12,652 nucleotides of DNA. Origin: a virus. Made by a program: the position numbers and the translations under genes. The stretch lies in UHGV virus genome UHGV-0154273; one strand, written 5' to 3'. Below the pieces are notes generated by a model, which ran no database searches, was not told where the DNA came from, and was given only the letters and a program-made list of their open reading frames with translations. Shown here one piece after another: positions 12,557 through 12,652 of the stretch. The number at the start of each line of letters is the position of its first letter. The first letter of the stretch is position 1.

Positions 12557-12571
12557 AACCGCCTCTGTTGA

Positions 12572-12652
12572 CAGTTCGGCGAGCGCATTGCCGACGGCCG
12601 CACGCGTGTGTACCTGGTCAACACCGGCTGGATCGGCGGCGGCTACGGCGTG
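12572..12652 (+). pseudogene. pckA: Internal fragment of an ATP-dependent phosphoenolpyruvate carboxykinase (PckA)-like gene from a high-GC genome; truncated on both sides
   Basis: In-frame translation [27 protein letters not shown] contains the YLVNTGW-GG-YG signature of the PckA kinase region. An in-frame TGA lies immediately upstream (12569-12571). The fragment is ~68% GC with G/C-rich third positions, unlike the rest of the window. Confidence 0.45.

Follow-up and report, generated by a model that had tools for sequence, protein, structure and literature searches.

The right-hand end of the window, by which we mean the whole stretch of 12,652 nt that was analysed, raises the question of whether an integrase-bearing element lies inside a pckA gene of a high-GC host, or whether the DNA at this end is a chimeric join or contaminant. 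The window is an entire contig, ENA ERZ773532 NODE_1986_length_12652_cov_8.917932, and a look-up of its 258-aa ORF returned exactly one record, ERZ773532 NODE_1986. Both readings had been put forward in the first-pass annotation, on the strength of a jump in GC content, and this jump is real: in 40-nt windows the GC fraction goes from 0.30–0.50 to 0.675–0.70 from position 12560 onwards, and the tail at 12576–12652 has a GC content of 71.4%, compared with 52.0% for 73–12576. Elsewhere, only 53 of 12,427 windows of 77 nt reach a GC content of 70% or more. Read in frame 1 from 12551, this end gives a 33-letter translation with a TGA stop at 12569–12571, after which 12572–12652 encodes 27 residues that match ATP-dependent PEP carboxykinase.

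The description of these 27 residues as PckA-like proved correct. The 27-mer aligns with the Pfam family PEPCK_ATP (PF01293) at profile positions 394–419 of 465 with an E value of 1e-5, and its score of 24.9 bits, from an alignment of only 26 residues, falls under the gathering cut-off of 26.5 bits because the fragment is so short. It also matches residues 410–435 of the ATP-dependent PEP carboxykinase PDB 1j3b_A (E=1e-4). The parent gene clearly belongs to the PF01293 family, since the tail is identical at 77/77 positions to a full-length Collinsella ORF. When the characteristic 15-residue motif was scanned degenerately, with one genome per species, at least 120 loci were returned; among the matches listed, nearly all were from Collinsella or Coriobacteriaceae of the human gut, and at least 47 of the loci listed differ from the tail at three or fewer of the 77 positions. 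Positions 12576–12652 are identical throughout (77/77) to the human-gut Collinsella loci L036 and L121, and two further loci, L019 (C. aerofaciens MAG10030) and L124, are identical at 76/76 positions over 12576–12651 and differ only at the last base, 12652. In L121 the stretch sits inside an intact ORF of 594 codons with an overall GC content of 63%. The bases immediately upstream of the match, inside this intact ORF, are GCCAAGATGC, and the native Collinsella upstream sequence reads GCCAAGATGCTCGGCGAG, which contains no stop and does not resemble the DNA on the left of the join; Collinsella pckA has no stop codon at the position matching the TGA of the window. The tail had no match among 5,426 complete E. 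coli genomes, and E. coli pckA was rejected as its source on this ground. A second PDB PEP carboxykinase chain, 6at3_A (AGAQAYLVNTGWNGTG), aligned only weakly with the 27-mer (E=2), which likewise disfavours E. coli pckA. These data clearly show, through the 77/77 identity and the Pfam and PDB matches, that 12577–12652 (plus strand) is an internal fragment of Collinsella pckA. Only 25 internal codons are present in the window, so that the complete PEP carboxykinase coding sequence is absent, and the piece carries no start codon, stop codon, promoter or regulatory context; it is a gene fragment and is not expressed from the junction.

The DNA to the left, at 73–12576, is an E. coli chromosomal island that is cut at both ends by the tips of the contig. 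Once its ends are removed, the window aligns at 100% identity over 96% of its length with one complete E. coli chromosome, NZ_LR536431.1, and 148 further E. coli genomes give partial matches at 82–95%; relatives with the same gene order were found in 149 of the 5,426 complete E. coli genomes. Searched against phage records, the same trimmed window found no DNA match, and the plasmid collection yielded a single partial one. The segments 72–9708 and 10258–12576 are 99.96–99.99% identical to NZ_LR536431.1, with a single mismatch in each, at 5774 and 12571 respectively, and 9329–12576 is 99.97% identical to three other loci (L002, L003 and L005). At 5774 the difference from NZ_LR536431.1 is an ordinary SNP. 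A segment of 549 bp (9709–10257) is missing from NZ_LR536431.1 and was found in three other assemblies; this deletion lies between short GGTTG/CGTTG repeats and has cost the serine recombinase gene its 3′ end (210 aa versus 206 aa), along with some of the spacer. As NZ_LR536431.1 and the three assemblies match between them, every base of 72–12576 is accounted for by E. coli DNA.

A native copy of the island occupies 3680–17285 of locus L001, and in NZ_LR536431 the island is flanked on one side by yqeF, with an IS1-disrupted transporter gene, and on the other by tRNA-Gly, actS and xdhA. The native right-hand part extends for approximately 1.35 kb past the point at which the window departs from it, as far as tRNA-Gly. 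This right-hand segment is present in one of the 5,426 complete E. coli genomes, so that statements on the native context are drawn from that genome and four other assemblies. At 2174–3537 of L001, directly upstream of the island integrase gene, there is an IS1A element by which a gene for an aromatic amino acid transporter is cut short. We saw no convincing att direct repeats around the island in NZ_LR536431, and the IS1A next to the integrase probably explains the missing repeat in NZ_LR536431.1. A related island with two adjacent integrase genes was observed in a bovine E. coli (L129, NZ_CP154887.1 3632362–3652491), where WP_021563832 and WP_021563833, the latter carrying DUF4145, are repeated on both sides, an arrangement that points to islands lying in tandem or nested at the same site.

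The position of the join was set by aligning the window with E. coli L001 and with Collinsella L019, L036, L121 and L124. In this three-way comparison the breakpoint between E. coli-derived and Collinsella-derived DNA falls at 12576|12577, with the T at 12576 as the sole base common to both parents, and the exact junction sequence is CTCTGTTGACAGTTCGGCGAGCGC. The junction had earlier been placed at 12557–12571; the change in composition there is genuine, but the break itself lies further to the right. Through 12570, six independent native loci do not differ from the window; at 12571 they carry C and the window A, and at 12572–12576 (CAGTT) they match it again. Past 12576 all six read TTTTCAGTAAACTGACAG, which is AT-rich, and not the CGGCGAGCGCATT of the window; in E. 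coli the native continuation past the join starts with CCAGTTTTTCAGTAAACTGACAG and is also given, for the six loci, as TTTTCAGTAAACTG, and in none of the six does pckA follow. Each side of the join is therefore approximately 100% identical to a different organism, and the two belong to different phyla. No att-like repeat was seen at the break. The in-frame stop that had been described as bounding the PckA reading frame upstream is indeed present at 12569–12571 (plus strand); however, it is an island TGC turned into TGA by a private C-to-A difference at 12571, and not a boundary of pckA. This is the sole difference from the native loci across 9329–12576, and C is found in 6/6 of them. Island bases also supply the Gln codon and most of the Phe codon at the start of the 27-mer, which leaves only 25 codons to pckA. 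The join and the mismatch private to the contig are 5 nt apart, which is what a tip of low quality or built from a single read would be expected to show; the foreign piece, at 77 nt, forms the extreme tip of the contig and is below typical read size.

These alignments bear directly on the possibility that the junction is real, i.e. that a truncated E. coli island has become joined to pckA in Collinsella or another high-GC genome by insertion or illegitimate recombination. If true, recombination of a satellite-like E. coli island into the pckA gene of a gut Collinsella in vivo would amount to DNA transfer between phyla. The sole points that speak for it are that an assembled contig exists and that both organisms share a habitat, and we regard it as extremely improbable. 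The break lies in intergenic DNA of the island, 1.35 kb before the native end and with no att-like repeat; the island, at 52% GC, is the same as its E. coli copies except for the private base at 12571; the perfectly matching Collinsella locus examined, L121, has an intact pckA; and the other end of the contig is adapter, as described below, and hence offers no second host junction. The suggestion that the element was inserted in the pckA gene of a high-GC host is not upheld, as the element is from E. coli, the break is inside it, and the flank is a Collinsella sequence that is absent from the complete E. coli genomes. A pattern for the junction, with N at 12571, had no match in JGI metagenome contigs and 0 matches in IMG/VR, where the native junction likewise gave 0. 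This absence is weak evidence against a real junction, because these collections returned neither the contig nor the native junction.

The first-pass annotation had also drawn attention to the last gene of the window, which starts only 15 nt away from the proposed junction with no room for its promoter. The distance is right: this gene, a 75-aa island ORF with an ATG start according to the ORF list and its translation, occupies 12329–12556 on the minus strand, 15 nt from position 12571. The puzzle itself disappears once the native loci are considered, as the ORF is the last gene in the window but not in its native setting. The exact 75-aa protein was found in 1018 blocks of public assemblies, and in all five of the distinct neighbourhoods shown a 146-nt spacer and then a divergent 259-aa gene lie beyond it, followed in four of the five by actS (LysM/Peptidase_M23) and xdhA. 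The apparent lack of promoter room is an effect of truncation, since the native loci continue with an intergenic region and further genes. A promoter scan of the native intergenic region gave one weak site, no better than in shuffled sequence. A Shine–Dalgarno-like AGAGG is located at 12561–12565 (minus strand), 5 nt upstream of the ATG and in the E. coli-derived part of the window (the reverse complement of 12557–12576, which contains it, is AACTGTCAACAGAGGCGGTT), and it may serve as the ribosome-binding site of the 75-aa ORF.

The opposite tip of the contig is informative about how the DNA was handled. Positions 1–8 are poly-T, read directly, and 9–72 (minus strand) are a complete Illumina TruSeq indexed adapter, index-1, comprising P7, the index CGTGAT/ATCACG and the read-2 primer site, by exact match. 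Window positions 1–72 are T8, then CAAGCAGAAGACGGCATACGAGAT, CGTGAT and GTGACTGGAGTTCAGACGTGTGCTCTTCCGATCT, where 9–32 and 39–72 have 0 mismatches to the adapter parts and 0 chance matches would be expected; the reverse complement of 1–80 ends in CTTCTGCTTGAAAAAAAA. When a read runs off a short insert, Illumina data classically show the adapter and then poly-A, and the poly-T would be this poly-A as seen on the opposite strand. The 63-nt reverse complement of 9–71, GATCGGAAGAGCACACGTCTGAACTCCAGTCACATCACGATCTCGTATGCCGTCTTCTGCTTG, agrees at 63/63 positions with a published adapter, printed as the 63-nt Illumina reverse adapter sequence (PMC7327805). The adapter is synthetic and not genomic DNA, and it cuts the island integrase gene approximately 107–108 codons in; in the public record the 258-aa ORF starts at a GTG inside it. 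Its presence at the left tip indicates that untrimmed library artefacts entered the ERZ773532 assembly.

Taken together, and judged from the DNA comparisons, the right end is very probably a chimeric tip of a short-read metagenome contig, in which the E. coli island is joined to 76–77 nt of Collinsella pckA, with a chimeric library molecule or read from an untrimmed data set of human-gut type as the most likely origin. The proposal of a chimeric join or contaminant is thus the one that the evidence favours, given two organisms each at approximately 100% identity, a 1-base overlap, a 77-nt tip and an adapter on the opposite end. Both tips of the contig are library or assembly artefacts, since the parents of the join differ and the other tip is adapter, and the junction has no biological significance of its own. 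Counted against a chimeric tip is the coverage of the contig, approximately 9, which is not extremely low and at which the assembler might have been expected to take the native E. coli path. As to mechanism, the sample would have held both Collinsella and an E. coli carrying this tRNA-Gly-associated island, and one or a few chimeric templates or reads would have joined intergenic DNA of the island to an internal part of Collinsella pckA. When TruSeq libraries are prepared, ligation of one fragment to another and PCR template switching can both produce chimeras of this type. The assembler may then have used the chimera to extend a low-coverage contig end, and the same untrimmed read set would have left the full adapter read-through on the opposite tip.

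We infer a library origin for the chimera, and not one within the assembler: a 1-base overlap would give a de Bruijn graph no shared k-mer through which to link the two genomes, so that a chimeric read or template bridging them is the simplest source. A join made purely by the assembler, through path extension or gap closing between two graph tips and with no chimeric molecule or read, fits the SPAdes-style name of the contig, and the 77-nt tail equals a standard SPAdes k and would suit an edge ending at a pure-Collinsella vertex; indeed it is plausible that the length of the tail reflects an assembly k of 77. Nevertheless, we hold this to be unlikely, as with one shared base the connecting k-mers need a bridging read, and the private base at 12571 suggests one specific read, not a consensus. 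The tail could also have come from another library of the same run by cross-sample contamination or index hopping, in which case the join would still be a chimera. The presence of the index 1 adapter is in keeping with such a source, but Collinsella and E. coli are both ordinary in human-gut metagenomes and the island itself is present in the human gut metagenome assemblies L003 and L006, so that no second sample is needed, and we give this explanation very little credence. A chimeric molecule or read from a single sample remains our preferred explanation of the tail.

Among the genes of the island are a tyrosine integrase gene that has lost its 5′ end, two endonuclease genes (endonuclease VII and HNH), genes for a major head protein and a scaffold-like protein, and those for a DEAD-box helicase and a serine recombinase, as well as small cargo ORFs. 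The major head protein matches phrog_267 at 2.8e-67 and PDB 23sf_I at 4.8e-78, and is 57.7% identical at the amino acid level to the capsid protein of the Autographiviridae phage Lidtsur (Bonnellvirus lidtsur); in addition, a 68-aa protein of the island has a weak DNA_Packaging_2 match. No large terminase, portal or tail genes were recognized in the island. Its predicted gene set is satellite-like, and the island is possibly a satellite of T7-like phages with a capsid protein of its own making. A literature search returned no description of the island or of a satellite with an Autographiviridae-type capsid, and no mention of the ENA accession. The 614-aa DEAD/DEAH helicase (7477–9321, minus strand) matches the PADLOC DpdF model PDLC02858 over its full length with an E value of 2.7e-268, and other DpdF models match it far more weakly. 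PDLC02858 was probably built from this E. coli island family, so that annotation of the helicase as part of a defence system could mislead. Between the helicase and recombinase genes lies an ORF-poor gap of about 890 bp (9322–10211), which contains a strongly G-skewed stretch (about 9700–9830) and an 18-nt inverted repeat (9825–9842/9942–9959). Rfam gave no match in the whole window, in 9300–10260 or in 12300–12652, and none in the gap even at E≤1; the gap may represent an origin or an RNA not yet described.

If it were accepted as it stands, the junction would assign an E. coli mobile element to the wrong integration site, pckA, and to the wrong, high-GC host, and would mark a gene as promoter-less. 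In this context, NODE_1986, and probably the whole ERZ773532 assembly, should have its ends trimmed before host assignment or analysis of att sites.

Temperate elements do occur inside protein-coding genes, as with e14 and phage 21 in icd of E. coli. In real insertions of this kind it is an att end of the element that borders the gene, the flanking DNA is that of the host in which the element resides, and sequence from the element usually makes good the end of the gene. The window bears a superficial likeness to these systems, as an integrase-bearing element abutting a partial housekeeping gene, but unlike e14 and phage 21 its break is internal to the element and its flank comes from another phylum. 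With pckA of the Collinsella aerofaciens group (PF01293) the tail shares 77/77 nt and the 15-residue stretch characteristic of this gene; unlike that gene, it consists of 25 internal codons with no start, stop or promoter. A further comparison is with the untrimmed adapter read-through and chimeric reads known from contig tips of de novo genome and metagenome assemblies. The window shares with these an exact TruSeq index-1 adapter tip and, as in other tips built from chimeric reads, a foreign piece shorter than a read, a join that is free of homology and parents that are otherwise intact, and nothing sets it apart from them.
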